In this document: positions 34,793 to 50,625 of the stretch, one piece after another
Position numbering within the stretch: the first letter of the stretch is position 1
Layout: each line of letters begins with the position of its first letter
Assembly: GCA_963769935.1 (NCBI GenBank)
Contig: CAVYNY010000016.1
Location: 64,001 to 128,000, forward strand
From: an uncultured delta proteobacterium
GTDB taxonomy: Bacteria > Desulfobacterota > Desulfobacteria > Desulfobacterales > JAFDCJ01
Length of the DNA: 64,000 nucleotides
Reading direction: 5' to 3'
Made by a program: the position numbers and the translations under genes
The notes under the pieces: model-generated
The model's input: only the letters and a program-made list of their open reading frames with translations
Database searches by the model: none
Told to the model about the DNA's origin: nothing

Positions 34793-35644
34793 ATGGGTGA
34801 TAAGAAAACAACAGTCCTCGATGTCCAGCAGGCCAAGAATGAGGGACGCAAACTTACCATGCTGACTGCTTATGATTATCCGCTGGGACTGATGGCCGCG
34901 GAATCCGGCGTCGACATCGTCCTGGTCGGCGACTCACTGGGCATGGTGGTCATGGGCCTGCAGGGAACGGTTGAGGTCACCATGGAGAATATGATCCATC
35001 ACATCAAAGCCGTCGTCCGGGGATGCAAAGGACCTCTGATCGTCGGCGACATGCCGTTTATGAGCTACAACACCTCCATCCGGGAGGCGATTATCAATGC
35101 CGGCCGTCTGATGAAGGAAGGCGGCTGTGATGTCGTCAAGCTGGAAGGCGGGGTTGATTTCGCGCTGACGATTGAAGCAATCGTCAAAGCCGGAATTCCC
35201 GTGCAGGGTCATATCGGTCTGACACCGCAGACCGCTTCCGCGTTGGGCGGCTTTAAAATGCAAGGCAAGGATGCCGCGGCTGCCAAACAGATCATCGATG
35301 ATGCCAAGGCCCTGGAAGATGCCGGCGTATTCTCGATGATCCTGGAAGCCGTGCCGGCTCCGCTCGGCAAGCTGGTCTCCGAAGCGGTCAAGGTTCCGGT
35401 CATCGGCATCGGGGCCGGACCGGATGTAGACGGCCAGGTGCTGGTGTTTCATGACGTCGTGGGCCTATTTGACCGGTTTGTGCCGAAGTTTGTCAAACAG
35501 TACACCAATGTCAGAAAGATAATCGTAGCGGCGTTAAAGGAATATAACCAGGACGTTCTTGAAGGACAATTCCCGGGACCGGAACATTCCTTTAAAATGC
35601 CGGATGAAGCCCTGGAAAAGCTGAAAAAGATGATCGAAGGATAA
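34793..35644 (+). CDS. panB: 3-methyl-2-oxobutanoate hydroxymethyltransferase
   Basis: MLTAYDY, LVGDSLGM, VKLEGG, GHIGLTPQ, IGIGAG, DGQVLV. Confidence 0.96.
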   Translation: MGDKKTTVLDVQQAKNEGRKLTMLTAYDYPLGLMAAESGVDIVLVGDSLGMVVMGLQGTVEVTMENMIHHIKAVVRGCKGPLIVGDMPFMSYNTSIREAIINAGRLMKEGGCDVVKLEGGVDFALTIEAIVKAGIPVQGHIGLTPQTASALGGFKMQGKDAAAAKQIIDDAKALEDAGVFSMILEAVPAPLGKLVSEAVKVPVIGIGAGPDVDGQVLVFHDVVGLFDRFVPKFVKQYTNVRKIIVAALKEYNQDVLEGQFPGPEHSFKMPDEALEKLKKMIEG

Positions 35645-35908
35645 AGAAGTGGAGTGGTACGGCCAGGTTCCTTTTGATCTTGACTCGCAGCCCATCACCG
35701 TGTTATGCCTCCAGCGTCGATGAAGTCAAAGCCAGGGCCGAATTAGAGAACAGATGCAAAAGCTCAAGGCTATTCGGTTTCAGATGCCAAGACCCTAAGT
35801 CCTCCCCGCTGGACCCACCCGCGGGGAGCCAGCCGCCGGATGCCCATCCAATCAGGAAAATAGTCGTCCCTGGGCCGCTCAATGTAAGGATTGCTGTAAA
35901 GGGATTCA

Positions 35909-36775
35909 ATGTCGTTCCTCGTCATTATGTCATTGCTCAATGGTCTGACACTGGCCGCACTGCTGTTCATCACGGCCAGCGGACTGACACTGTCTTTTAG
36001 CCTGATGCGGGTTGTCAACCTGAGCCACGGTGCGCTTTATATGGCGGGCGGCTTCATCGGCTTGTCCGTGATCAGCCTCACCGGAAGCTGGCTCCTGGCC
36101 TTGTTTGCGGGCGGCAGTGTCATGGCTGTCGTGGCTCTGCTGGAAGAAAAACACCTACTGCGATGGGCCCGCGGCAATGACCTGATAGAAACCCTGATCT
36201 CGCTGTCGGTGGCCATCATCATCGGTGACCTGGTTCTGGTCATCTGGGGGGGGTACCCCAAAACCATTGAAATCCCCGCGATGCTGAGCGGCATCTGGAC
36301 CATACCGGTGATCGATATGGTTTATCCCATATTTCGGATTTTTATGCTGGGATTGGCCATTGTAATCATCGTTGCCCTGTGGTTTTTCCTTAAAAAAACC
36401 AACCTTGGGATCACCATCCGGGCCGGTGTCGATAATTTCGAAATGGTGTCCGCTTTAGGAATCAATGTCCGCCGGCTGTTTACGATCGTTTTTTGTCTTT
36501 CCGGATTTTTGGCCGGTGTTGCCGGCGTCGTGGGCGGAACGTTCATGATGCTCGTGGTGGGTGAAGACTGGCGCATTCTGACTTTAACACTGATTGTGAT
36601 CATTATCGGCGGTATGGGCAGTTTGGGGGGCACCATCGTGGGTGCGCTGATAACCGGTCTGATCTACAGTTTTGCAACGGCCTATATTCCTGAATTTTCG
36701 TTGTTCATCCTGTTTTTGCCCGTGGCCATGATCCTCTCCATCAGGCCCCATGGGCTGTTTGGTAAAAAGGTCTGA
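35909..36775 (+). CDS. Branched-chain amino acid-type ABC permease (LivH-like)
   Basis: VVNLSHG, LGITIRA, IIGGMGSLGG, RPHGLFG. Confidence 0.9.
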   Translation: MSFLVIMSLLNGLTLAALLFITASGLTLSFSLMRVVNLSHGALYMAGGFIGLSVISLTGSWLLALFAGGSVMAVVALLEEKHLLRWARGNDLIETLISLSVAIIIGDLVLVIWGGYPKTIEIPAMLSGIWTIPVIDMVYPIFRIFMLGLAIVIIVALWFFLKKTNLGITIRAGVDNFEMVSALGINVRRLFTIVFCLSGFLAGVAGVVGGTFMMLVVGEDWRILTLTLIVIIIGGMGSLGGTIVGALITGLIYSFATAYIPEFSLFILFLPVAMILSIRPHGLFGKKV

Positions 36776-36779
36776 TCCG

Positions 36780-37793
36780 ATGAAATCCTCCCGGGTGCCT
36801 AAAACAGTCGTACTGCTGTCGTCCCTGGCAATATTGGTCGCTGTGCCATGGATCGCTTCGGACTATTTTGTCATGATGTGTATCCGCGTCATGTATTTCG
36901 GAATGCTGACCCTGAGCCTGTGCTTTCTGGCAGGCGAACTGGGTGTCGTTTCGTTGATGCAGGCTTCGTTTTTCGGTATATCGGGGTACTTCATCGCCAT
37001 TTTGCAGACCCGCTATCAGATCGCATTTCCAATTCCCCCCTTGGTGGGCATCGGGGTGGCGGTCTTGTTTGCCGCTGTGACAGGGCTTCTGGTGATTCGC
37101 GTTCGGGGCATATACTTTTTGATGCTCACCCTTGTGCTCGGCCAACTCGTCTGGGCGCTGGCGAGTCAATGGGCATCGGTCACCCGAGGCGACTCGGGCA
37201 TTACCGACATATTCGCTCCGATGATATTCGGGATCTCAACCGAAAAGTCAAAAGGGGCATTCTATTTCTTTGAGCTGTTTTTCTTTTGCGGAGTGATTTG
37301 CTTTCTGGCGGCATTGAAACGTTCCCCCTTCGGGTTGATGCTGCGCGGCATTCGCGAAAGTGAGAGCCGGATGGTGATGCTGGGTTACCCGGTAGCGCTT
37401 CTGCGCTACATGGCGTTTATCTTTGCCGCGTTCGTGGCCGCCATGGGGGGTGTTTTCTTTGCCTACTTTACCGGCCTGATCAATCCCCACTCGTTCTCAT
37501 TAACCACCAACGTCGAAACCCTGCTTTCGGCAATTTTGGGCGGCATTCAGACCTTGTTCGGGGCGATCCTGGGAACCGCGATTCTCAAAATTTTGGATCT
37601 GGTTTTGAGCGGTATTACCCGGCGCTATTTGCTGATTATGGGGATCTTGTTTCTGATTACGATTATGTTCGCGCCCAAGGGGGCTGCCGGGGCGTTAAAG
37701 CGCCTCTGGGATAGTGTTGCATCACGAGTTTTGGGAAGCGCGGCGCCCGGCAAGGGTGCCGCCGACGATTCGTTTCTGGAAGACACAAAATAG
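36780..37793 (+). CDS. Branched-chain amino acid-type ABC permease (LivM-like)
   Basis: GIYFLMLTL, SPFGLMLRGIRESE, ILGG. ATG 36780. Confidence 0.9.
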   Translation: MKSSRVPKTVVLLSSLAILVAVPWIASDYFVMMCIRVMYFGMLTLSLCFLAGELGVVSLMQASFFGISGYFIAILQTRYQIAFPIPPLVGIGVAVLFAAVTGLLVIRVRGIYFLMLTLVLGQLVWALASQWASVTRGDSGITDIFAPMIFGISTEKSKGAFYFFELFFFCGVICFLAALKRSPFGLMLRGIRESESRMVMLGYPVALLRYMAFIFAAFVAAMGGVFFAYFTGLINPHSFSLTTNVETLLSAILGGIQTLFGAILGTAILKILDLVLSGITRRYLLIMGILFLITIMFAPKGAAGALKRLWDSVASRVLGSAAPGKGAADDSFLEDTK

Positions 37794-37808
37794 GAAAGGA
37801 GAGAGAAG

Positions 37809-39153
37809 ATGAAAAGAAAAAATTGGATAATTGCAATCACGGTCGTTTTCTTTTTTAGCTGTGGCCTTAGCGGGCAATGCGACGGCACTGGATGAAATCC
37901 GCATCGGCACCATCGGCCCGCTCACCGGTTGGGCGACCATTTTCGGCGAAGGCGTTCTCAACGGCGCCAAATTGGCCCTTGAGGAACACAACAATGAATT
38001 CAACGGCATCCCGATCAAGGTTTTTAGCGAGGACACCAAGGCCGATGTTGAAGTGATGCGGGCCAAGCTGGATTCTCTCAAAAACCGCGACAAAGTCCAT
38101 TTGATCATCGGGCCTTCGCTGGGGCACGAAGGTATGGCGGCGGTGGATTGGGGCGCGCGCAATCCCGAGGTTCCCATGCTGATCGGCTATTCGGCCCCGG
38201 AAGACATTACCATGCGCAAGGCAACCTTCAGTGTCATCCGCCCCGGCTGGACCGGCGCCCAGGTGATTTTCAATTTCGGCCAGTACTGCGCCAAAGACCT
38301 GGGTTATAAAAAGGTCATCATCGTCGGGCAGGATTACTCTTACCCCTGGGACCAGGCCGCCGGTTTCATCAGAGGATTTTTGGAAAACGGCGGGGAAAAA
38401 GTCGAACGTATCTGGCATCCGGTGGAAGCCGTTGATTTCAGTTCGATCATGGCAAAGCTGATGGGCATGTCCAAGGAGTACGATGCGGTCTTGAACAACT
38501 CCGGCGGTGCCCAGGTAGTTGCCTTTTTCAAACAGTGGAAACAGTTCGGACTGGATAAAATGTATCCCCAGATTCTGGGGCAGGCCAACGTCCCGATCGT
38601 GTCGATGCTCTCCGAACTCGGGGATTCGGCTTTGGGAGTTTACTCTTCACTGCACTATTACGACGGCAATCCTTCAGCGGCCAACCAGAAATTCCGCGCA
38701 AACTTCAAAAAGAAATACGGCCACTACCCGGACGTAATCGCTGTCCAGGGTTACGATGCCGTCCATGTCGCCTTTAAAGCCATGCAGGCCATTGACGGGC
38801 AGGTGGATGATCCCAAGAAATTCATCACCGCCCTGCGCCAGGTGAAGATGAGTGCCGACGAATCTCCGCGCGGTCCGTTTTATTTCGATAAATACGCCAA
38901 CCCGGTGCAGAATATCTACATCAAGAAGGTGGTCAAAAAAGACGGCCAGCTGATGAACGAGGCCGTCAAGACCTATAAGAATGTTTCCCAGTTCGGCCCC
39001 TATGCTGATATTGCCGACAAGTATATGGCGGCTCCCGCCACCACCCGCGACTACCCGCCCGGAGACAAGGCCTCCTATTTCAAGGAGATCGAAAAATACT
39101 TCGGCAAGGACTATGTCGAAAAGCTGGAGAAGAACCACGGCTGGGTGGATTAA
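37809..39153 (+). CDS. Liv-type ABC substrate-binding protein, +1 frameshift in a T-tract within the signal peptide
   Basis: Likely true start ATG 37809 after a GGAGAG RBS. Deleting one T at 37851-37856 gives MKRKNWIIAITVVFFLAVALAGNATA-LDEIRIG. Body has IGPLTG and DYSYPW. Confidence 0.82.
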
Positions 39154-39240
39154 CCCTAATGCTGCCGAAACAACTTGGCAAAGTGTTTATATCTGTAGTT
39201 CTTTAGGGGCTTATTTCTCATAGCATGTTGTCAGAAAATG

Positions 39241-39304
39241 AGTTTCAGGTGTCAGTGTTCAGGTTTCAGGATCTGGCCATTCGCTTTGCTGACACCTGAA
39301 ACCT
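39241..39304. repeat. Inverted-repeat element, TTTCAGG/TGTCAG family
   Basis: gtttcaggtgtcag...ctgacacctgaaac, a perfect 14-bp inverted repeat. Confidence 0.8.
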
Positions 39305-39476
39305 AGACTTTGTGTCACGATATAACCAGCGCTCTTGCTCGCCCGAAGGGGCCACTTTTCCCGACTAAGTCTCGGGAATGGCGTAGGTTCAATCAAGTGA
39401 AGTTGGCTGGCAAAAATTCAGGTACTCGCATTTTATCGTATTTCCGAAACGTTGAGCTTTCAGAGGCTTCGATCAC

Positions 39477-40253
39477 ATGCATGCGCTGGTTTTAAAGAAC
39501 GTATCCAAATCCTTCGGCGGCATCGTTGCTGTCAGTAAGGTCGACCTCACCGTCACAATGGGGGAGAGCCGTGCGTTGATCGGGCCCAATGGGGCCGGCA
39601 AGTCGACCCTTTTTAATTTGGTCACAGGGGAAATCCCACTGGACGAGGGGCGGATCCTGCTGTTCGGCAAAGACCTTACCCGCGAACCCGTGCAGAAACG
39701 CATTGCCTCGCACCTGGGCAGGACCTATCAGATTTCCAACCTGTTCTCCCAGTTGACGGTCCAGGAGAACCTGTTTTTGGCTTCCTGGCAGACACGGTCA
39801 AGAAAAGCCTCTTTAGTCGCCGCGCTGTTTCGTTCCTGGCGCAAATTTGAGAATCAGCGCCGCCACGTCGCCGAGATTGCGCATCGGGTCGGACTGCAGG
39901 ACAAGCTCGACACAAAGGTCGATGAGCTCTCGCACGGAGAACACCGCCAGCTGGAGTTGGGTCTTACACTGGCCCATGAGCCCAGGATACTGCTGTTGGA
40001 CGAACCCATGGCGGGGCTTTCCGCAGCCGAGCGGGGATTTATGACCGAGCTGATCATGAGCCTGAAGTCAGAGATTACCGTTGTGATCATCGAGCACGAC
40101 ATCCATGTGGCCTTCAGCATTGCCGACCAGGTATCCGTGCTGCACCATGGCGCCATCATTGCAGAAGGAAGTCCGAAGCAGATCGAGAACAATCGAGAGG
40201 TTCAGCAGATCTATACCTTAAGCCGGCATTCAAAAGATTCCCATCATGTCTGA
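39477..40253 (+). CDS. ABC ATP-binding protein (LivG-like)
   Basis: [23 protein letters not shown]. Confidence 0.92.
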
Positions 40254-42381
40254 ACCCCTGTTGAACATAGAACACCTGGATGCCTACTACGGCAAAAGTC
40301 ACATCCTGCAGGGAGTAAATCTGCAAGTACACCCGGGAGAACTGATCGTGGTCGTCGGCCGCAACGGCATGGGCAAAACAACGTTGCTGAAATCGGTTAT
40401 GGGGCTGCCGCCCGTGTCAAGAACCGGAACGATCCTTTTCGATGGCCAGGAAACCATCGACCGGCCCACCCATGAGATTGCGAACTTGGGGATTGGTTAT
40501 GTACCGCAAGGGCGGATGCTGTTTCCGTCTTTGACCGTTGATGAACACTTGCGTTTTGCCTGGCGCCGGAGGGTGGACAATTCCCAGTGGTCGCCCGAAA
40601 CGGTCTACGATCTGTTCCCGGAATTGAAAAACAGAGCCGATATCTCCGGTACCCTGCTGAGCGGCGGCGAACAGCAGATGCTGGCTATCGGACGGGCACT
40701 GGTCACCAATCCGCTGCTGTTAATGATGGACGAACCTTCCGAAGGTTTGTCCGTATCGGTCATCCAGCGGGTGGAAGAGGTTTGCCGCCATCTGAGTTCC
40801 CAGGGTATGGCGATCCTGCTGATCGAGCAGAACCTGGATATGGCCCAGTCTTTGGCCCAGCGCGCCTATATTTTCGTAAACGGCCGCATCGCCCGGGACC
40901 TGTCGTCCGCTGCGCTTGCGGCGGATCGGCACCTGCTGCAACAATTGCTGAAAGTGACGGCAGGAACCGGCGACCTCGCATCGGAGCAACCCGCGGAACC
41001 GGAGGCGGTTGAGGAACCGGCGACCGAAGTTATTCCCGAAGCTGTCGTCGGGGCCACTGCACCGACGCTGTGGAGCAGCGCCGACCTTTCGGAGGCCCGG
41101 GCGCTGGAAAGCACGACACTTACCCCCCCGGTGAGTGAAACCCGTCCGGCCGCATTGCAGGTGTCAGTGGCCGACACCATCGACCGGGCCGCCTACATCG
41201 CCGGGACCTTCGACACCAAGGCCCGGGACCTGCTGTTTATTAAGTACTGCCTGGACCGCCGGCGCCTGCGAACCATTACGGTGGATCTTTCCACTTCGCG
41301 CAAACCTTCCCCGGCTGCCATCAGTCCCACCGAGGTGGCCCGACACCATCCGCAAGGAATCGGGGCCGTGTTTACCGGCGACCGCGGTTCGGCAGTGGCC
41401 GGCATGGCCGAGGCCTTCACCCGCTTTATGGCCGGGCGCCGGGACGTGGGCGGCATCATCTCGGCCGGGGGCAGCGGCGGTACCGCCCTGGTGACCCCGG
41501 CGATGCGAAGTCTGCCGGTGGGCGTACCCAAAGTGATGGTTTCCACGGTCGCTTCCGGCAATGTCCGGCAATACGTGGGCCCTTCAGACATCTGCATGAT
41601 GTATTCGGTCACCGACGTGGCCGGCATCAACCGCATCTCGGCCAGCGTGTTGTCCAACGCCGCCCACGCTCTGGCAGGCATGATCGGGTTTCGACAGGAG
41701 GCGGACCGCTCCCGGCTGCCGGCTATCGGACTGACCATGTTCGGGGTCACCACCCCTTGCGTCCAGGCGATCACCAAGGCGCTGCAAATGCGCTACGACT
41801 GCCTGGTGTTCCATGCCACCGGCACCGGGGGCCAATCCATGGAGAAACTGGTTGAATCGGGTATGCTCGAAGGCGTCATCGACGTTACCACCACCGAAGT
41901 GGCCGATTTTCTGGTAGGCGGCGTCATGAGCGCCGGTGAGGACCGCATGGGGGCCATCATCCGGAGTCAAATTCCCTATGTCGGCTCCTGCGGGGCGCTG
42001 GACATGGTCAATTTCGAAGCCCTCGACTCGGTGCCGCAGAAATTCAAAGACCGCAACCTCTATCAACACAATCCCCAGGTGACCTTGATGCGCACCACCG
42101 CGGCGGAAAATCAGGCCATTGGGCGCTTTATCGCCGCCAAGCTCAACCAGATGGAGGGGCCCGTGCGTTTTTTGCTGCCCCTAAAAGGAGTTTCGCTGAT
42201 CGATGCCCCCGGCAAACCGTTTCACGACCCGGCGGCCGACCGAATGTTGTTCGACACCCTGGAAAGCGAATTTCGGCCGGGTCCCAATCGCCGGCTGATC
42301 AAACTCGCCCTGAACATCAATGATCCGGCCTTCGCCAAGGCCCTGGTCGATCACTTTTTGGACATTATACTAATGCAGTAA
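40246..42381 (+). CDS. LivF-like ABC ATPase fused to a Tm-1-like/UPF0261 domain
   Basis: [18 protein letters not shown] and DEPSEGL, then a Pro/Glu/Thr linker, then [52 protein letters not shown]. Confidence 0.88.
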
Positions 42382-42440
42382 TAGTTATGAACTTCTCATT
42401 AACATCCGGTTTTGCCGGACATAATATTTAGGAGATTGAC

Positions 42441-43274
42441 ATGGCGCGTTTCACCCGACAACAAATTTTAGATCGACTCAACGCGAAAATTCGCAGCGGA
42501 CAGCCCATCGTCGGCGGCGGTGCCGGCACCGGACTGTCGGCCAAATGTGAGGAGGCCGGCGGCATCGACCTGATCGTTATCTACAATTCAGGCCGCTACC
42601 GCATGGCCGGCCGGGGATCGCTTGCCGGGCTTATGCCTTACGGCAACGCCAACGACATCGTGATGGAGATGGCCCGTGAAGTGCTGCCGGTCACCCGCAA
42701 CACCCCTGTGCTGGCCGGCGTCAACGGCACCGACCCCTTTTGCATCTTCGACCACTTTCTCGACCAACTCAAGGCCGTGGGGTTTGCCGGGGTGCAGAAT
42801 TTCCCTACGGTGGGACTCATCGACGGCACTTTCCGGCAGAACCTGGAGGAAACCGGGATGGGCTTCGGGCTGGAGGTGGACATGATCCGGTTGGCACACG
42901 CCAAAGACATGTTGACGACGCCCTATGTGTTCTCCGAAGACGATGCCATTGCCATGACCGAGGCCGGAGCCGATGTCATCGTCTGCCATATGGGGCTGAC
43001 CACCGGCGGCAACATCGGGGCCGACACGGCCAAGACTCTGGACGATTGTGCCGATTATATCAACGCCTGGAGCACAGCAGCGCTGAAAAAGCGCCGGGAC
43101 GTGATCATCCTGTGCCATGGAGGTCCGATCTCCATGCCCGCGGATGCCGAATACGTCCTGAAGCGCTGTCCGGAATGCAACGGATTTTACGGGGCCTCCT
43201 CGATGGAGCGGCTGCCTACCGAGAAGGCCCTCACGGCCCAAACCAAAGAATTTCTCAACATCAAGCGCAGCTAA
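42441..43274 (+). CDS. TIM-barrel 'PEP hydrolase-like' protein (homologous to the Tm-1 C-terminal domain)
   Basis: [53 protein letters not shown]. Confidence 0.88.
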
Positions 43275-43301
43275 CGGCAGCCCAAAAAACAGGTTTTAAA
43301 A

Positions 43302-43625
43302 AGGTTTCAGGTGTCAATAAAGAAAAAGACGACAGAAGTCAGAAGCCGGATGACAGAAGACAGATGGCAGAGGACCGAAAATAGAAGGTGAGAAGATAAG
43401 AAGGTGAGAGGGTGAGAGGGTGAGAGGGTGAGAAGATGGGAAGCGGGTTGAAGTTATTGGTTATTAGCCTTTAGGAGACGAAGTTAAAAAGGGAACCACC
43501 ACGGAACAGAAGAATATCTGATTTCGATGTCCTACGGTGCCTTGTGACTATGAACTATGAGCTATCTGCTACGAGCTCATCTATCTGAACCCTGAACCCA
43601 AAACATCCAGCATCAAGTATCCAGT
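43302..43625. repeat. Composite intergenic block of 7-8 nt tandem repeats
   Basis: tttcaggtgtca, gacagaa units, (AGAGGGTG/AGAAGGTG) in about 7 units at 43384-43439, ctatgaa/ctatgag, ctgaacc and cagcatc units. Confidence 0.75.
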
Positions 43626-43637
43626 AGGAGGAGTGTC

Positions 43638-45317
43638 ATGACAATATACGGGTGGGTTATTCTAGCGGTCATTATTGCGATAATCCTCATCGCGGTGGGG
43701 ATCTGGTTCATCCGGTCCTTTTATCGCCGATCGTCTAAGGAAATCGCCTTCGTTCGCACGGGACTGGGGGGGCAGAAGGTCATCATCGATGGTGCCGCCT
43801 TTGTTTTTCCGATTTTTCACGATGTCACCGAAGTCCATCTCAATACCCTGCGGCTGTCGGTGGTGCGTGATAATGAGAATGCATTGATCTCCAAGGACCG
43901 CATGCGCGCTGACGTGGCCGTGGATTTTTACATTCGTGTCCACAAAGAGGTCGACAGCGTCACCATTGCCGCCCAGACCCTCGGGCGCAAGACAGGCAAG
44001 CCCGACGAACTGCGAGAGATGATGGAGGGCAAATTCGTCGACGCACTGCGGGCCACGGCCGCCGGCATGACCTTGGAAATGCTCCACGAGAAACGCAGTC
44101 AATTCGTTCAGGCCGTGGGACAGGCCGTGGCTGAATCCCTGACCAAGAACGGGTTCGAACTTGAATCGGCCAGCCTGATCAACCTCGACCAAACCGACAT
44201 GGAGTATTTCAACCCCTCCAATGCCTTTGATGCCGAGGGCTTGACCCGGTTGACGGACGAGATCGAACAGCGCAAGAAGACACGCAACGACATCGAGCAG
44301 GACACCCTGATCCAAATCCGAACCAAGAACTTGGAAACCGAAAAGCAAGGCCTGAATATCGAACGCGAGAGCGAATACGCCCGCTTGGCCCAGGAAAAGG
44401 AGCTGGAGTTCCGCCGCGCTCAGCAGCAGGCTGAATTGGCCCGCGAGCGCGCCGAGCGCAAACGTGAGGCGCAAGTGGCCGACATCATTGCCAACGAGGA
44501 GATCGAGAAGGCCCGCATCGCTTCCGAGCGCCAGCTGAAGCAGGACCGTATCGAGCAGCAGCGGGACATCGAGGCCTTGGAGATCGAACGGCGCAAATTA
44601 ATCGAGCTGGCCGAGCACGCCCGGACGATTGCCGTGGCCGAATCCTCCGAGGCCGAAACAGCGGCACGCGCCAGGGCCGACGATGTGCGTGCGGCGGCCA
44701 TTTCGGCCGAAGAAGCCGTCTTTACTGCCCGGGAGAAGGCCCAGGCGGAGCGCAAAAAACAGGTGGAGCTGATCCTGACGGCTCTGGAGGTGGAAAAGGA
44801 CCAGCTGCGGCAAAAAACCCGCATCGCCACCGAAAAGGCGGTGGCCGCCGAGCAGGCGGACATTGCGCGTATCGAGGCCGATGCCTTTGCCGCAAATGAA
44901 GAAACCCGTTCGAAAGCCTATCGAATTCGGCACCAGGTCGAATCCGAGGGGGTCCGGCTCATGGCCGAGGCCAACAATATCGCCAGCCCCGAGGCGCGGG
45001 TCTCGGCCTTGCGCTTGCGCCTAGTGGAAAAACTCGACGCGATTATCCGCGAGAGCGTCAAGCCCATGGAGAAGATCGAAGGGATCAAGGTGGTTCACTT
45101 AGAAGGCCTGACGGCGCCGGCCGGCGGCGGATCGCCGGACGGTGAAGGCGGGCTCACCGACCGGCTCGTCAGCAGCGCCTTGCGCTACCGCGCCCAGGCT
45201 CCTCTCCTGGACTATCTGTTGGGCGAAATCGGGATCGATGCCGGCAACCCCAGCAAGCTCGCACAGGTTTTGGCTGAACTAAAGAAGGATCGCCCCGAAG
45301 GGGCTAAAGATAAGTAG
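43638..45317 (+). CDS. Flotillin-like SPFH/band-7 protein (YqiK-like)
   Basis: N-terminal TM, AFVRTGLGG, ELESASL, NAFDAEGLT, long Ala/Glu coiled coil, KPMEKIEGIKV, RAQAPL. Confidence 0.9.
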   Translation: MTIYGWVILAVIIAIILIAVGIWFIRSFYRRSSKEIAFVRTGLGGQKVIIDGAAFVFPIFHDVTEVHLNTLRLSVVRDNENALISKDRMRADVAVDFYIRVHKEVDSVTIAAQTLGRKTGKPDELREMMEGKFVDALRATAAGMTLEMLHEKRSQFVQAVGQAVAESLTKNGFELESASLINLDQTDMEYFNPSNAFDAEGLTRLTDEIEQRKKTRNDIEQDTLIQIRTKNLETEKQGLNIERESEYARLAQEKELEFRRAQQQAELARERAERKREAQVADIIANEEIEKARIASERQLKQDRIEQQRDIEALEIERRKLIELAEHARTIAVAESSEAETAARARADDVRAAAISAEEAVFTAREKAQAERKKQVELILTALEVEKDQLRQKTRIATEKAVAAEQADIARIEADAFAANEETRSKAYRIRHQVESEGVRLMAEANNIASPEARVSALRLRLVEKLDAIIRESVKPMEKIEGIKVVHLEGLTAPAGGGSPDGEGGLTDRLVSSALRYRAQAPLLDYLLGEIGIDAGNPSKLAQVLAELKKDRPEGAKDK

Positions 45318-45387
45318 AAAATCCAGACCCAGAGGATTCGGCTTTGTTTCATCCCAAAAGGGTTGTGTCTGGCGTCAGATAACTCAT

Positions 45388-45520
45388 GGGATAATGGAAT
45401 ATTGAAAATAGCGGCCCAAAAGCGGATAATGATCTAATTTTATTTTCTGATCAGTGCCATCCATATAAAAACAGATCTCATACCGCCAAACCCAACATTC
45501 CAACATTCCATTATTCCAGT
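45388..45520. repeat. Inverted octamer-unit element (TGGAATAT/CAACATTC)
   Basis: tgggataatggaatattg versus caacattccaacattccattattcca. Confidence 0.6.
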
Positions 45521-45598
45521 ACCCCAGGGCACTCAAACACGGCAAAGCCACATTTTTCTAACCTGGCTCATAGAACCGGGTTTTAGAGGAGGATATAG

Positions 45599-46039
45599 AT
45601 GGTCAAGGTTTATCGGTCCACGGTCCTGAATGCTCCGGCCGATCGAGTGTGGCGGGACCTGCGCGATTTCAACGGGCTTGCCAACTGGCACCCATCTATC
45701 GTAATGAGCCGCATCGAAAACGACCACCCGGCCGACAAGGTCGGGTGCGTCAGAAATTTCCAGCTCAAGGACGGCGCCCGCATCCGGGAAAAACTGCTGT
45801 CACTGTCGGATTACGACTACGCCTGCACCTACACCATACTGGACAGCCCCATGGATGTGAAGGATTACATTGCCACTTTGCGGCTGTTGCCCGTCACCGA
45901 GGGCAATCGCTGCTTCATTGAGTGGTCGGCGGAATTCGAATGCCCGCCGGAAAAGGTTGCTGAGCTGGCCGAAACCGTCGGCGACGGGGTGATTCAGACC
46001 GGGCTCGACGCATTGAAGAAACGCTACGGACAACGATGA
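45599..46039 (+). CDS. SRPBCC/START-fold (MxaD/polyketide cyclase-like) protein
   Basis: VW..LRDFNGLANWHP, VGCVRNF, IREKLL, FIEWSAEF. Confidence 0.88.
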   Translation: MVKVYRSTVLNAPADRVWRDLRDFNGLANWHPSIVMSRIENDHPADKVGCVRNFQLKDGARIREKLLSLSDYDYACTYTILDSPMDVKDYIATLRLLPVTEGNRCFIEWSAEFECPPEKVAELAETVGDGVIQTGLDALKKRYGQR

Positions 46040-47520
46040 AGATTACCGTCATTCGATCGGCCGTCATTGACGTACCCATCGACCAGCTGTGGGCTGTGCT
46101 GCGCGATTTCAGCAGTCATGACCGGTGGCATCCGGCCGTGGCCCGCAGCCGGATGGAAAACGATGTCGACGGTGACGTGGTCGGCGGGGTGCGACGATTC
46201 AGCCTCAGCGACGGCGCCGAGCTGCGTGAGCAGCTGCTGCGCCACAGCGACCGCGAGTGCACCTTTACTTACAGCATCCTTGACTCGTCCCTGCCTCTAT
46301 TTGACTACGTCGCCACGGTTCGCCTCAAGCCGGTGACCGACGGCAACCGGACCTTCTGGGACTGGCGCTCGCAGTTTCGCGCCCCGGACGATCGCGCCGC
46401 AGAACTGGAAAACCTGGTCGGCCGACAGATTTTCGAGGCCGGATTCACGGGGCTGCATAAGTTTCTGGCCCAGTCGGCGGCGCTCCCCCGAACGCCGGCC
46501 CCTACAGAACCGACTCAGGTGGCCGCGGTCAGCGACCTCCTGCCTTCCAAAGCGGTGGAGGTGGCGGCTTTCGGAGGCCCCGGGGTCATGTTCCTGCGCG
46601 ATGGGACCGTCCCTGCGCCGGGCCCCCGGCAGGTGCGCCTTCGCCAGACCGCGATTGCCGTCAACTTCCTCGATCTCCAGCAGCGCCGGGGAATCGCCGC
46701 GGGCTATGATCTGCCGGGAACGCCGGGGATGGAGGGCGTGGGGTTGATCATCGACGTGGGGCGGCAGGTCCATGGTTTGTTCCCGGGTGACCGCGTCGCC
46801 TACCTGAGCCGGACGCCCGGCGCCTATGTCGACATGCGCTGCATCGATGCCGACGCCTGCATCCCCCTGCCCGACGGCGTATCCGATATGGACGCTTCAA
46901 CATTGCTCAAAGGCGTCACGGCTGCGTTAGTGCTTAGCCGGGTTTTCAGGGCCGCCCCGGGGGCAGCCATCCTGATCCAGGCGGTTGCCGGCGGCGTGGG
47001 CCACCTGCTCAGCCAATGGGCCAAATCCATGGATCTCACTGTCATCGGCACGGTATCTACTGCCGAGAAGGCCAAGTTCAGCCGAGACTGCGGCTGCGAC
47101 TACCCCATTGTGGTCGCAGACGATACCCCCTTAGCGGCCGAAGTGATGCGCATCACCCATGGGCGCGGCGTCGACTACTGGGTTCACAGCAGCGGCGCCC
47201 AGGGACTCGATACCGCCGTCGCCTGCCTGTCTCTCTGCGGACACTGCGCCGTCATCGGCGACCGCGACGGAAAGTCCATCCCCCTGGACGTAACCGTGTT
47301 GAAGCAGCGGTCTCTGACCGTGTCGGCCCCGGTAGGCTTTGACTATTTTGACGATCGGCCCTACCTGCAGCGCCTCGCCCATCAACTGTTCGCCAAGATT
47401 CAAAGCCGCATGATTATCCCCGTCATCGAAGCGTTTCCCCTAAGCCGGGCGGCTGAAGCCCATAATCGAATCGAATCCCGTCAGAACAAGGGTGCCGTCG
47501 TTCTGACCCCGGAAGGGTGA
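46036..47520 (+). CDS. SRPBCC domain fused to a quinone oxidoreductase-like MDR domain
   Basis: N-terminal LW..LRDFSSHDRWHP. C-terminal VNFLD, PGMEGVG, GDRVAY, AVAGGVG, AAEAH..IESR..GAVVL. Confidence 0.85.
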   Translation: MKITVIRSAVIDVPIDQLWAVLRDFSSHDRWHPAVARSRMENDVDGDVVGGVRRFSLSDGAELREQLLRHSDRECTFTYSILDSSLPLFDYVATVRLKPVTDGNRTFWDWRSQFRAPDDRAAELENLVGRQIFEAGFTGLHKFLAQSAALPRTPAPTEPTQVAAVSDLLPSKAVEVAAFGGPGVMFLRDGTVPAPGPRQVRLRQTAIAVNFLDLQQRRGIAAGYDLPGTPGMEGVGLIIDVGRQVHGLFPGDRVAYLSRTPGAYVDMRCIDADACIPLPDGVSDMDASTLLKGVTAALVLSRVFRAAPGAAILIQAVAGGVGHLLSQWAKSMDLTVIGTVSTAEKAKFSRDCGCDYPIVVADDTPLAAEVMRITHGRGVDYWVHSSGAQGLDTAVACLSLCGHCAVIGDRDGKSIPLDVTVLKQRSLTVSAPVGFDYFDDRPYLQRLAHQLFAKIQSRMIIPVIEAFPLSRAAEAHNRIESRQNKGAVVLTPEG

Positions 47521-47628
47521 ACCCCGGAAATTTTCCATTTAAAGTGCTCTTCCAGTTTTAATATTTGCGTCAGTCTAATGCTTGGCAGCTGTTGACTTGT
47601 CCAGATATTGCTATGATGAAAGCAGGAA

Positions 47629-50625
47629 CTAGATCCGATAAAGTTTCAGCGGGCTGTCGGCCAATTTTTGATTGGCAGCGTCCAACTTATCTTCACCGGA
47701 TATCACCGCCACCGCCCTGTCTGTCTCCTGCCAATCGAAGTATTTCTCGGCGGCCTGCATCACCTTTTTGCGGGTCAGTGACAAAAGCGCACTTTTGAAC
47801 CGCAGGCGCATCTCGTCGGACAAAGAGATAATTTTCCGGTAAAACGCTTTGCGGGCCGCCGGTCCCGGGGGATCGGGTTTGTCAATTTCAGAGCAAACCT
47901 GCAATACCGCCTCATCGACATCTTCAGCGTCGAACTTGCCCGCCCGAATAAATGCAGCGGCATTGTCAAAGGCATTTAAGGTGGCTACGATGTGGGGGTC
48001 CCGGTAAGAAGCAAAACTGAACAGACCGTCTTCCGGGCTGTATAAAGCGAAACCGCCGTAAGCCCCGCCCTTTTCCCGAATCTCACGGTGCAGATACATG
48101 GAACGCAGAATCTTGCTGATCACGGATAAGGCCGCACTGTCCGCATGTTCCATGCGAACGGTTTCAAAGGCCAGCGCGACGAATGAAACGGCCGAAGAAG
48201 TGCTCCATCCCTCGCGAACCATTTCACTTTCCAGGCTGATGTTCGGCGCAATGAAGCCATCGCCGCTTCCCTCACCGAAACCGCTAAAAACCGAAGTCAA
48301 ATTTTCAACGGCATTCGTCATCGCAGCATCTTCTCCAATTAAGGCCATTTTGAAATTATTTTGGGTGAGCAGCGATTTTCCGATGGCCGCCAGGTCCTTG
48401 GAAATGGCCCCGAGCTTTTGCTGGTCAAGTTCATCGGAAAGCTGCTTGATGGTCTGCAGGTGATGCACCCCACTCCAGATTTCGCCCAGCGCCCGGGTGG
48501 CGGAAAATCGCCGTGAAGCCAGGGAAATCGCCAGTCGATGGCCGTTATGAATGACCATGGATTCCAAGCCGGCCCGATACTCGAGCAGCAGGTTTTTCAG
48601 GCGTATGGTATCGGAAAAATCACACTGGTGCAGCAATTCCCGGATGATATCAAACATCCGGTCCTGATTCCTGAGCAGGCATTTGCCGTTAAAAGAGATA
48701 AAGGGGACGCACTCCCCGGCCGGATCAAAGCGGGTGCGGGAGTGGGTCGACAAACCGATGCCCCCTGTATGGGCATCAATGAGCTGTGCCAGTTCGGCGT
48801 AGTTGCGGCTCCGGGTGCCTATTCTGGAAAAAGCATAACAGAAAAAGGGGGCCAACGGCACCAGGGCCGCGGGCAGTGAACCGGTTCCGGCTGCCGCGGC
48901 AAAGTACACAATACCGGAGGTAGCCTGGTTGTACATGACGGCGTGCAGGCCGTCCTCTGAGCCGCTCGCTTCGATAATGGGAACCGACGGTGGAATATCT
49001 TCCCGCTGCAGCGTGGGAAGGCTGGAAACGTCCTCTTCGGATTCCTGCAGCCGCTGCAACGCTTCCGCGTCCTGTTGAATCAGCTCGATATCGGTCGGCG
49101 ACAGATTCTTTCTGAGGCGGTCAAGCTCGACGTCCTGACGTCTGGCTTCCCGTTCCTCCATCTGTTGATCCGGTGCCAGCGTCAAAAGAATCCGGTGCGG
49201 GTTGTCCAGAAAGTATTTTTTGATTTGGCTTTCAAAAAAAGGGCCCTTGGCCAGCTCGCTTTGCAGTCTGACCAGATCGGCATCAAAATTTAAAATCTTG
49301 AGCGGGTCGCCGCCGTGGAACCAGCTGCCGGAAAATGTCAGCAGCAATTTGATGCCATAAGGGTAAGGCGTGTTGGTGATCTCCTTGCGATGAAACTCAA
49401 TCTGATGTATTGCGGATTCAATCAGCTTTTTTTCAATACCGCCGGCGGCAAGCCGGTTCAGTACGTCCAGAATGATCTCTTCGATCTTGCCGGCGGATGA
49501 CTGCGCGACATCTTTCAAACCGCTGACAAACAGCGAGTCGCGGTTATCGGCTTCAAAACCGGCGCCGTCGCACAGAGCGCTGCCAAGTCCGGCGTCGATC
49601 AGTGCTTTGCGCAGGGGAGAGGCGGAATTGCCGAGCAGGATCTGTTCCAGCAAGGTCAGGGTCAGGATCTCAAACGGTTCCTTGATGTCGGCCGTCAACC
49701 AGGCCAGGCAAACCTGACATTTTTTGCTGGCGTCCTCTTTTTTACTGAACGGATACGGGAAGGTCACCGAGCGCGGATGGTTCCAGCGCGGCTGGGATTC
49801 AACGACTGTTCCGGGCTCAATTCGCTTGAAATTCTTCAGGACCGCAGCGTCAATAAAAGCCAGATGATCTTTAAGGGGCAGGTTGCCGTAGGTATAGAAA
49901 AATGCATTGCTGGGATGGTAATGCTTTCGGTGAAATTCTTTAAGCTGTTCATAGGTTAACGCCGGAATTTCAGCCGGCTCCCCGCCGGAATTAAACCGAT
50001 AGGTGGTCGCGGGGTACAAGGCTTTGAGAATGGAACGTGCCATCACCTGATCCGGCGAAGACATGGCGCCTTTCATTTCATTGTAAACCACGCCTTTGTA
50101 AGTCAATTGAAACGTGTCCGCACCCCGACCCTGCTGGTTTTCTGCAAGCTCCAGGCGGTGCCCCTCCTGTTTAAAGCTGAGCCTTTCAAGTTTGGGGAAA
50201 AATGCAGCATCCAGATAAACATCCATCAGATTGTAGAAATCCTTTCCATTCTGGGTCGAGAAAGGATACATGGTCCAATCCGATGCGGTAAAGGCATTCA
50301 TAAAGGTGCTCAGGCTTCTTTTAAGCATTGAAAAAAACGGATCACGCACCGGATACTTTCGCGAACCGCACAAAACCGTATGTTCAAGGATGTGGGCCAC
50401 GCCGGTGGAATCCTGTGGAACAGTCTTGAAAGCGACGCTGAAGGTGTTTTCTATGTCGCTGTTGCTGATGTGCACATGTTTCGCTCCGGTTCCCGAATGC
50501 TCCAATTCGTAAAAAGTTGAAGTTATCTCCTTCAACGGCTCAATGCGTTCAATGCGATAACCACAGATACAATCACCCTGCTTAAGATCCGGATTAATAG
50601 TGTCCGCTATAGTTTCCATAGTCAC
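47629..50625 (-). CDS. M16C metallopeptidase (presequence protease/insulinase family)
   Basis: HILEH inverted zinc motif, FMNAFT, GVVYNEMKG, IREKGGAYGG, SYRDP. Confidence 0.93.
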   Translation of the reverse strand: MTMETIADTINPDLKQGDCICGYRIERIEPLKEITSTFYELEHSGTGAKHVHISNSDIENTFSVAFKTVPQDSTGVAHILEHTVLCGSRKYPVRDPFFSMLKRSLSTFMNAFTASDWTMYPFSTQNGKDFYNLMDVYLDAAFFPKLERLSFKQEGHRLELAENQQGRGADTFQLTYKGVVYNEMKGAMSSPDQVMARSILKALYPATTYRFNSGGEPAEIPALTYEQLKEFHRKHYHPSNAFFYTYGNLPLKDHLAFIDAAVLKNFKRIEPGTVVESQPRWNHPRSVTFPYPFSKKEDASKKCQVCLAWLTADIKEPFEILTLTLLEQILLGNSASPLRKALIDAGLGSALCDGAGFEADNRDSLFVSGLKDVAQSSAGKIEEIILDVLNRLAAGGIEKKLIESAIHQIEFHRKEITNTPYPYGIKLLLTFSGSWFHGGDPLKILNFDADLVRLQSELAKGPFFESQIKKYFLDNPHRILLTLAPDQQMEEREARRQDVELDRLRKNLSPTDIELIQQDAEALQRLQESEEDVSSLPTLQREDIPPSVPIIEASGSEDGLHAVMYNQATSGIVYFAAAAGTGSLPAALVPLAPFFCYAFSRIGTRSRNYAELAQLIDAHTGGIGLSTHSRTRFDPAGECVPFISFNGKCLLRNQDRMFDIIRELLHQCDFSDTIRLKNLLLEYRAGLESMVIHNGHRLAISLASRRFSATRALGEIWSGVHHLQTIKQLSDELDQQKLGAISKDLAAIGKSLLTQNNFKMALIGEDAAMTNAVENLTSVFSGFGEGSGDGFIAPNISLESEMVREGWSTSSAVSFVALAFETVRMEHADSAALSVISKILRSMYLHREIREKGGAYGGFALYSPEDGLFSFASYRDPHIVATLNAFDNAAAFIRAGKFDAEDVDEAVLQVCSEIDKPDPPGPAARKAFYRKIISLSDEMRLRFKSALLSLTRKKVMQAAEKYFDWQETDRAVAVISGEDKLDAANQKLADSPLKLYRI

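Follow-up and report, generated by a model that had tools for sequence, protein, structure and literature searches.

Several known systems come close to the one treated here. MarK (multiple aromatic kinase) of Novosphingobium aromaticivorans (Saro_1862, PDB 9MPY), a UPF0261 protein, is an ATP-dependent phenol kinase yielding ADP (PMC12624787), with an ATP site at D14-T15-K16 and a phenol site comprising G195, H219, H304, H348, T196, F283 and I285. Plant Tm-1-like proteins, according to an excerpt of PMC5028733, fuse a UPF0261 domain with a TIM barrel, and that excerpt makes no mention of ATP-binding cassette (ABC) proteins for the plant fusion; the sole shown role of tomato Tm-1 (PDB 3WRV-3WRY) is binding a viral replication protein. 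Liv/Urt importers (HAAT) are five-part transporters, and in Staphylococcus aureus the ABC permease IsdF depends on the flotillin FloA (PMC10147376). Here we analyze a 64,000-nucleotide stretch (the window; contig CAVYNY010000016.1, positions 64,001 to 128,000) from an uncultured delta proteobacterium of the Desulfobacterales, in which nine genes between panB and preP form a cassette around a livF::UPF0261 fusion.

The cassette is real, conserved, mobile and uncharacterised. We give somewhat better than even chances to the view that it is a horizontally acquired uptake-and-first-steps cassette, in which an importer with a built-in kinase would feed a TIM-barrel enzyme. Profile searches with Pfam and NCBIfam confirmed the nine open reading frames (ORFs), all on the + strand and in the order that an earlier note on this DNA had claimed:

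34793..35644, + strand: panB (TIGR00222 above cut-off), host gene of the left flank, outside the cassette
35645..35908, no strand: leader before livH, without a regulator gene, resembling the leaders of other Desulfobacterota copies
35909..36775, + strand: LivH-type permease (PF02653), front half, of the low-GC lineage type
about 36780..37793, + strand: LivM-type permease (PF02653), front half
37809..39153, + strand: LivK-type solute-binding protein (PF13458), one extra base near 37863
39477..40253, + strand: LivG-type ABC ATPase (PF00005), front half
40246..42381, + strand: livF::UPF0261 fusion, 711 amino acids (aa) in a single frame
40246..40959, + strand: LivF-type ATPase domain of the fusion, with Walker A, signature and Walker B intact
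40960..41166, + strand: Ala/Pro/Glu-rich linker of the fusion, seen in the sequence
41167..42381, + strand: UPF0261 (Tm-1/MarK-type) domain of the fusion (PF06792 and PF23189), likely a kinase
42441..43274, + strand: PF09370 TIM-barrel protein (profile match and fold model)
43638..45317, + strand: flotillin, with PF01145 (SPFH) and PF15975 (Flot)
45599..46039, + strand: SRPBCC protein (PF10604)
46036..47520, + strand: SRPBCC::zinc-type oxidoreductase of the NADPH quinone/enone-reductase type (profile match)
47629..50625, - strand: preP (M16C peptidase, profile match), host gene of the right flank

The livM start was placed at the first ATG past the livH stop. The HAAT importer has a binding protein, two permeases and two ATPases that keep Walker A, Walker B and signature, and none of the five subunits passed the NCBIfam equivalog cut-offs for LivKHMGF or UrtABCDE. 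It also differs from the known Liv/Urt importers in the extra enzyme-type domain of 400 aa on LivF. Within the fusion, PF00005 covers residues 21-165, PF06792 316-484 (203 bits) and PF23189 492-707 (311 bits), the latter two against cut-offs of 27. The flotillin has an N-terminal membrane anchor, an SPFH domain and a Flot domain; both profiles score above cut-off, and the protein lies under the FloT equivalog cut-off. For the last gene the best NCBIfam model is NADPH:quinone reductase, with a score under its cut-off.

Conservation of the cassette across genomes

A GTDB genome scan with the fusion protein found 491 stretches encoding a relative, of which the best 80 were taken to give 79 loci, a set biased toward close, full-length relatives. 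Walker A and the motif GTxDTK stand in one frame in 68 of the 79; of the remaining 11, six are cut by a contig edge and start inside the gene, four are broken by apparent frameshifts and one carries a variant Walker A. The fusion is no artefact. Counting only loci long enough, and dropping L013 for lack of a full domain, the fusion is followed by the TIM barrel in 69/72 loci, the flotillin in 66/66, the SRPBCC protein in 60/60 and the full SRPBCC::reductase fusion in 46/51, so the co-occurrence on which the earlier proposal depended is borne out. Judged by record title, carriers of the operon include Desulfobacterota, Alpha-, Beta- and Gammaproteobacteria and Rokubacteria/Methylomirabilota.

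The nine genes had also been suspected to be part of a larger donor cluster, and this is supported. Upstream of livH in the non-Desulfobacterota loci (L015-L079) there are an amidohydrolase (36/38), an alpha/beta hydrolase (34/37), an FAA-family hydrolase (26/36) and, less often, a GntR regulator (10/35). The upstream hydrolases and GntR are absent from L001-L014, two of which have instead a sigma54 activator with a TIM domain, and no amidohydrolase, alpha/beta hydrolase, FAA hydrolase or GntR gene stands upstream at the window site. The nine-gene form without hydrolases is shared by at least 10 other Desulfobacterota loci at 70-96% identity. Among the papers listed by literature searches we found no description of the operon or of the LivF fusion; subscription journals and supplements may hold more.

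Some loci depart from the usual arrangement. L025, L040 and L061 keep the fusion and the flotillin, with the TIM gene not behind the fusion. In the Rokubacteria loci L037, L039 and L059 the two SRPBCC genes are separated by an additional 3-4 kb of genes, among them one that is alpha-amylase-like and lies on the opposite strand.

Horizontal acquisition and a likely two-lineage origin

The genomic neighborhood supports a transfer. In 9 of 22 congeners panB and preP are less than 5 kb apart (gaps about 0.1 to 4.9 kb) and enclose no cassette, and in two of these nine the cassette sits elsewhere; in the other 13 the two genes are on separate contigs or a match was lacking. Window-type copies occur in 4/22 congeners and in 0/18 other families of the order, counts that are limited by incomplete bins; the 79-locus set contains some of these congener contigs as identical records. 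Contigs from run X2 run from the panB end straight into the preP side (35636 to 47601 and, in another join, 35643 to 47429), and other contigs bridge panB to livH. Of 400 genomes sampled evenly across the phylum, 86 had UPF0261, and among the 150 matches listed (35 others being weaker) there was no close fusion-length copy besides that of the window. In a quick UPF0261 tree the ten Desulfobacterota rows formed a clade (100) within a 51-row, mostly Pseudomonadota set (96).

Composition agrees in part. The right half had been judged by eye to be GC-richer than its flanks, and over 41001-47520 the GC content is indeed 59.5%, the 98.6th percentile of the genome's 6.5-kb windows (median 51.3%); the left half, at 53.8%, does not exceed the left flank (54.0%). 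GC at third codon positions (GC3) is 0.743 in the right half, the 99.8th percentile of five-gene runs, and 0.675 in the left four genes, the 93rd percentile. Two flank genes also reach a GC3 of 0.72-0.75, so composition alone is no proof of transfer. Because of the empty panB-preP site, the nesting among Proteobacteria and the GC3 at the 99.8th percentile taken together, horizontal acquisition, which the earlier note had thought probable, is supported by the sequences. No transposase or integrase ORF was found between panB and preP, nor were flanking or target-site repeats, a result obtained with no tRNA scan made.

The congener G013 has, in the quick tree, a separate copy of proteobacterial type, likely a second, independent acquisition within the genus. 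Its loci (L107, L103; C36:299500-314000) show the changed order fusion, SRPBCC, flotillin, together with a DeoR/LsrR-type regulator, three divergent TIM paralogues and a RuBisCO-like gene.

Did all parts of the cassette come from one source? Between Desulfobacterota and the other groups, identity is 27-31% for LivK, 30-33% for LivM, 42-46% for LivH and 43-46% for LivG, and 71-77% for the TIM barrel; among the other groups themselves the same four Liv proteins share 60-79%. A protein search brought up further LivK relatives, a second tier sharing 56-67% identity, and three contigs were found for one of them. L119 (44.6% GC) has the order sigma54-TIM activator, standalone UPF0261, TIM, livK, H, M, G, F, with livF and UPF0261 unfused and no flotillin. 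L120 and L121 (41% GC, near-identical) carry a ROK regulator, livK, a Gfo/Idh/MocA enzyme, a cupin and livH, M, G, F. The window LivH is 59% and LivM 51% identical to L119, and LivK 58-59% to L119/L120.

Trees of individual components repeated this division. The window's LivK, LivH, LivG and LivF domain cluster with their counterparts from L119/L120 (FastTree 0.98-1.0), LivG at 0.98; the LivF domain joins the unfused LivF of L119/L120 at 0.995, with an SH-aLRT of 99. Forcing LivK with the proteobacterial copies was rejected by the approximately unbiased (AU) test (p-AU 7e-9), as was forcing UPF0261 (9e-5) or TIM (0.010) with L119; the LivK outgroups were plasmid relatives at 29-35%, and the four of 11 whose surroundings were inspected stand in unrelated loci. 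The per-gene trees place UPF0261 and TIM with Proteobacteria and the transporter in another lineage, a mosaic that the earlier note did not see. GC3 is higher in UPF0261 than in the LivF domain in 11/11 Desulfobacterota loci and lower in 12/12 other loci having both values, kin in these counts not being independent. Across the linker (40960..41166) it climbs from 0.62-0.71 to 0.73-0.82.

The Desulfobacterota cassette is therefore likely, as judged from trees and codon composition, a chimera, in which a low-GC lineage would have supplied livH-M-K-G and the LivF domain, and Proteobacteria everything from UPF0261 onward. The simplest reading is that the junction of lineages lies inside the fusion gene, in the linker, and arose by recombination. 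Since halves of two lineages are joined there, the fusion likely either persisted through a swap of the transporter or was rebuilt in its course. Three things weaken this picture: for the short LivF domain a single-origin tree was not rejected (AU p 0.086), the AU groups were named after the FastTree trees had been seen and all trees are quick searches, and the low-GC lineage is represented by three contigs, two of them near-identical. The likely chimeric nature of the Desulfobacterota form is a new finding.

A frame break in livK had likewise passed unseen. Its signal peptide (ATG 37809) is one base out of frame with the body because of an extra base near 37863. Since this base is absent from 5/5 aligned relatives, from near-identical contigs of runs X1 and X2, and from P0002, a 447-aa LivK protein that is 99% identical over the mature part with an unbroken frame, the frameshift is likely an assembly error.

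This bears on the view that the cassette is a stranded fragment, functional in its donors and here of little activity after loss of the regulator and upstream hydrolases and breakage of the binding protein. The site has no regulator or hydrolase, livK is frameshifted in the assembly, run X2 contains empty-site joins and just 4/22 congeners carry the cassette. However, the near-identical contigs and P0002 do not have the frameshift, other Desulfobacterota maintain the hydrolase-less form, about 95 full-length LivK clusters exist at 80% or more, and cassette pieces occur in two RNA libraries, though presence there is not shown transcription and read depth in them does not serve to rank the genes. 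We consider such a fate very improbable.

The noncoding parts give few signals. The leader matches those of L005, L012 and L014 at 74-78% by blastn, and it holds no remnant of a small TIM-like or sigma54 gene. A promoter scan gave 12 promoter-like sites against 6.6 +/- 2.1 in shuffles, none of them on the + strand before livH; a terminator scan of the locus stayed at chance level, and no sigma54 consensus was found in ten leaders. The intra-operon spacers 39154-39476, 43275-43637 and 45318-45598 hold repeats recurring genome-wide (6, 26 and 50 blast hits), with an 8-base tandem run at 43383-43443 after the TIM-barrel gene, and the first spacer is mostly missing from contigs of X2 and X7.

The neighbouring panB was considered as a pathway member and rejected, its adjacency to preP being the host neighborhood in congeners. 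A panB paralogue follows the operon in 2/79 loci (L053, L069) and lies near the UPF0261-TIM pair in L096. The host genome has three PanB-family genes (C16, C20, C35), 100%, 46% and 42% identical to the window's panB.

Predicted pocket, enzymes and cargo

The UPF0261 domain of the window is closer to Tm-1 (E 1e-96) than to MarK 9MPY (E 3e-57), and Tm-1 is its closest solved relative. Like MarK it is a two-subdomain UPF0261 protein, in which D14, T15, K16, G195, H219 and H304 are all retained. At MarK T196, F283, I285 and H348 the window has V, M, N and I, and Tm-1 has V, M, N and L, so that the window and Tm-1 share the pocket G-V, H, M, N, H. The residues D, T, K, G, H, M, N, H are found in 69/69 fusion-type rows; the column of H348, the ketone contact of MarK, is I/L/V/Y in all 69, with M for F283 and N for I285. 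Unlike MarK, the window domain is fused to an ABC ATPase and its partners are a TIM barrel, a flotillin and SRPBCC proteins, not acvCDEF. Unlike the plant proteins, UPF0261 is here joined to LivF and the TIM barrel has its own adjacent gene.

The M/N residues also occur in 10/12 standalone rows that were classed by presence or absence of a TIM partner, made up of six plasmid rows of the same class, three congener rows with W for H304 and one divergent row. The six plasmid-borne copies, which lie beside a TIM gene (Rhizobium, Sinorhizobium, Azospirillum, Ewingella, Halalkalicoccus), keep the full pocket, as does the UPF0261 of L119; a Bradyrhizobium standalone copy has P for H219. The M/N positions differ in copies without a TIM neighbour (L113 and the second copy of L012) or in more distant ones. 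As M/N is kept in TIM-neighboured copies and changed in TIM-less ones, one predicted pocket type goes with the TIM partner.

Several variant copies deserve separate record. L098, L105 and L106 form a standalone clade with W for H304 and N at 196 beside a normal TIM gene, two of them also with a 2-phosphosulfolactate phosphatase-like gene. On the Bradyrhizobium plasmid locus L096 the divergent pair (H219 to P) is followed by an FAD oxidoreductase and pyruvate kinase, neighbours that hint at phosphoenolpyruvate (PEP) as product in that variant. The host has a second UPF0261 (G000:C13:483850-495500, L113:1850-13510) with a different pocket and no TIM partner, standing with an XRE-cupin regulator, two zinc dehydrogenases, a sugar ABC, a cupin, a metallo-beta-lactamase fold protein, a class II aldolase and a RuBisCO-like protein. 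This copy may replace the four-carbon sugar-acid kinase that is usual there. A broken third copy lies on the other strand of the same contig at 495861-496763.

The UPF0261 domain is likely a kinase, to judge by its conserved residues. A MarK-like aromatic pathway, in which a lignin-type phenolic aldehyde, ketone or acid would be imported and phosphorylated on its phenol oxygen, with SRPBCC and quinone reductase handling hydrophobic intermediates, appears unlikely to us. It agrees with the retention of G195, H219 and the stacking H304 of the phenol site, with a LivK nearest to 4EY3-type proteins (E 2e-46), whose ligands are aromatic, and with the PcaD-like hydrolase upstream in Proteobacteria; on the other side, the residues at H348, F283 and I285 are not of MarK type in any of the 69 rows, the domain is much nearer to Tm-1, and the identical pocket is found in sugar-ABC loci. 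Carboxylase/phosphatase genes of the acvCDEF/hpeCBAD kind were present neither in the window nor among families occurring in at least 3 of the 79 loci, a search confined to these within the genome. Since both the pocket residues and these neighbours point away from MarK, the cassette by its sequence belongs to the UPF0261 proteins and HAAT importers and is not filed as MarK.

The TIM barrel matches PF09370 with 443 bits and Mll9387 (2P10), a putative phosphonopyruvate hydrolase for which our searches turned up no assigned reaction, with E 1e-124. Its alignment-based model (pLDDT 84; a single-sequence fold at pLDDT 38 was discarded) superimposes on 2P10 with Z 38.4 and a root mean square deviation of 2.3 over 266 aligned residues. 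The next fold is 4ML9 (Z 20.2, 3.4, 234 aligned), whose title states a conserved phosphate site, followed by phosphonopyruvate hydrolase (Z 17.7, 3.8, 232 aligned) and methylisocitrate lyase (TM about 0.6). Several PEP mutase/isocitrate lyase members reach Z 16-18, and 4ML9, IGPS, TIM and NanE score alike. In 59/59 operon rows H183, H226, G227-G228, A252-S253-S254, E256 and R257 are invariant, and the sigma54-sensor copies have lost both histidines. The GG/ASS motif at beta7/beta8 suggests a phosphate site. N95, Q119 and N120 are invariant at the ends of strands 3/4, where the PEP mutase/isocitrate lyase superfamily has acidic Mg ligands; the window protein, with N95, Q119, N120 and two histidines at its strand ends, shares the fold of Mll9387 and may differ there from the superfamily. 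Because of the fold likeness and of the invariant histidines and GG...ASS, with histidines lost in sensor copies, the modelled barrel is likely an enzyme acting on a phosphorylated substrate.

The same comparison bears on a sensing or control module of little or no turnover, with UPF0261 as a regulatory ATP/ligand domain, the TIM barrel as ligand sensor and flotillin plus SRPBCC as a signalling platform. PF09370 domains do form the N-terminal domains of sigma54 activators (L003, L004, L119), and C-terminal regulatory domains are common on ABC ATPases. But all named catalytic-site residues are invariant in 69/69 fusion-type rows, the stand-alone TIM retains residues that the sensor copies lost, and most copies of the UPF0261-TIM pair are unfused to a transporter, which makes such a module quite unlikely.

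Of the remaining proteins, the flotillin is likely a dedicated scaffold, its membrane role being read from gene order only; FloA is a general scaffold, whereas the window-type flotillin gene lies within the transporter operon in all 66 loci. In 12 SRPBCC rows R52, E64 and Y90 are invariant and Y78 nearly so, and profiles match lachrymatory-factor synthase (E 2e-8) and hydroxynitrile lyase (E 1e-7). In the synthase the Arg-Glu dyad and two Tyr are R71, E88, Y102 and Y114 (10.1101/142687), and the E-Y-Y spacing of the window protein matches, residues being compared by spacing and profile match.

What does the importer carry? The earlier note had pictured a possibly heterocyclic or aromatic substrate, and an aromatic or hydrophobic one is not favoured by the non-MarK pocket, the lack of a recurrent acvCDEF-type gene and the sugar-type neighbours of the same pocket. 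In rhizobia sugar ABC, Gfo/Idh/MocA and cupin genes adjoin the UPF0261-TIM pair, and the L120 cupin shares 44% identity with the cupin that follows TIM in R. leguminosarum. The genes around the pair are of a catabolic kind: hydrolases and DeoR/LsrR-type (heading the copy of G013), ROK, SorC or GntR regulators. RuBisCO-like genes lie near copies in G008 and G013, and the other host UPF0261, with its different pocket, has the sugar ABC, class II aldolase and RuBisCO-like neighbours named above. A polar, sugar-derived or enolic cargo is weighed roughly three times as heavily as an aromatic one. What is carried is likely a small, polar hydroxy/enol compound, for instance an oxidised sugar, a sugar acid or a reductone-like ring, and not a lignin-type phenyl ketone. 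Standalone Tm-1-type pairs and the plant Tm-1-like proteins likely bind this compound as well. An insertion in S. meliloti SMa1334, by size and order presumably the UPF0261 gene, caused no nodulation defect and gave no GUS signal in nodules or rich medium (PMC3462710). This fits an inducible catabolic operon and names no substrate.

These elements can be combined into the mechanism that we prefer, and a kinase step can be named because a UPF0261 protein, MarK, has measured activity (PMC12624787). The Liv-type importer would bring in the polar hydroxy/enol compound, and the UPF0261 domain on the LivF ATPase would phosphorylate it at the membrane, trapping the cargo on entry. The TIM barrel would convert the phospho-product. 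The SRPBCC domains may act as tautomerase/isomerase-type helpers, a cupin taking this slot in rhizobia; the reductase may provide an NADPH step, for which a Gfo/Idh/MocA enzyme would serve elsewhere. Clustering of the transporters would fall to the flotillin.

The following points weigh against this mechanism. The two sites of MarK are 25 A apart, and Tm-1 shows ATP binding without shown catalysis (PMC12624787); the measured UPF0261 activity, that of MarK, is from a protein without a TIM partner. The nearest solved relatives of LivK are 4EY3 (E 2e-46), 4EYG, 4EYK, 4EVS, 4F06 and 4EVQ, which bind aromatic acids, and sugars are seldom the cargo of Liv-type importers. Ring catabolism would also agree with the PcaD-like and FAA hydrolases found upstream in Proteobacteria. 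The host genome has only distant relatives of the upstream hydrolases (best 27-45%) and no TIM-type (sigma54) activator, its PF09370 gene being single; for these reasons the cassette in the host may be incomplete.

Meaning for the Tm-1-type enzyme pair

The earlier interpretation thus holds in part: co-occurrence, transfer and the larger donor cluster stand, the aromatic substrate is not favoured, and UPF0261 now has a measured activity in MarK. This is the one measured activity of the family; its TIM-barrel partner has none.

A bolder extension of the preferred mechanism, which we offer tentatively and well short of even confidence, is a group-translocator-like ABC importer. Here the ATPase-borne kinase would phosphorylate the entering cargo, kinase dimers and the dedicated flotillin would cluster the pumps, the link would have survived a swap of the whole transporter, and the cargo would be what the Tm-1 pair, which plants, archaea and bacteria have in common, natively acts on. 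If this is true, identifying the LivK ligand would point to a new conserved pathway.

The pocket is tied to importers of three types that are unrelated or only distantly related (two Liv lineages and a sugar-type ABC), and a shared ligand would identify the substrate. A kinase joined to an ABC ATPase, with a dedicated flotillin next to it, would offer a clean model of how uptake, first-step metabolism and membrane organisation are coupled. The cassette opens a way to test what the plant Tm-1 enzyme pair does, and binding proteins are easy to screen.

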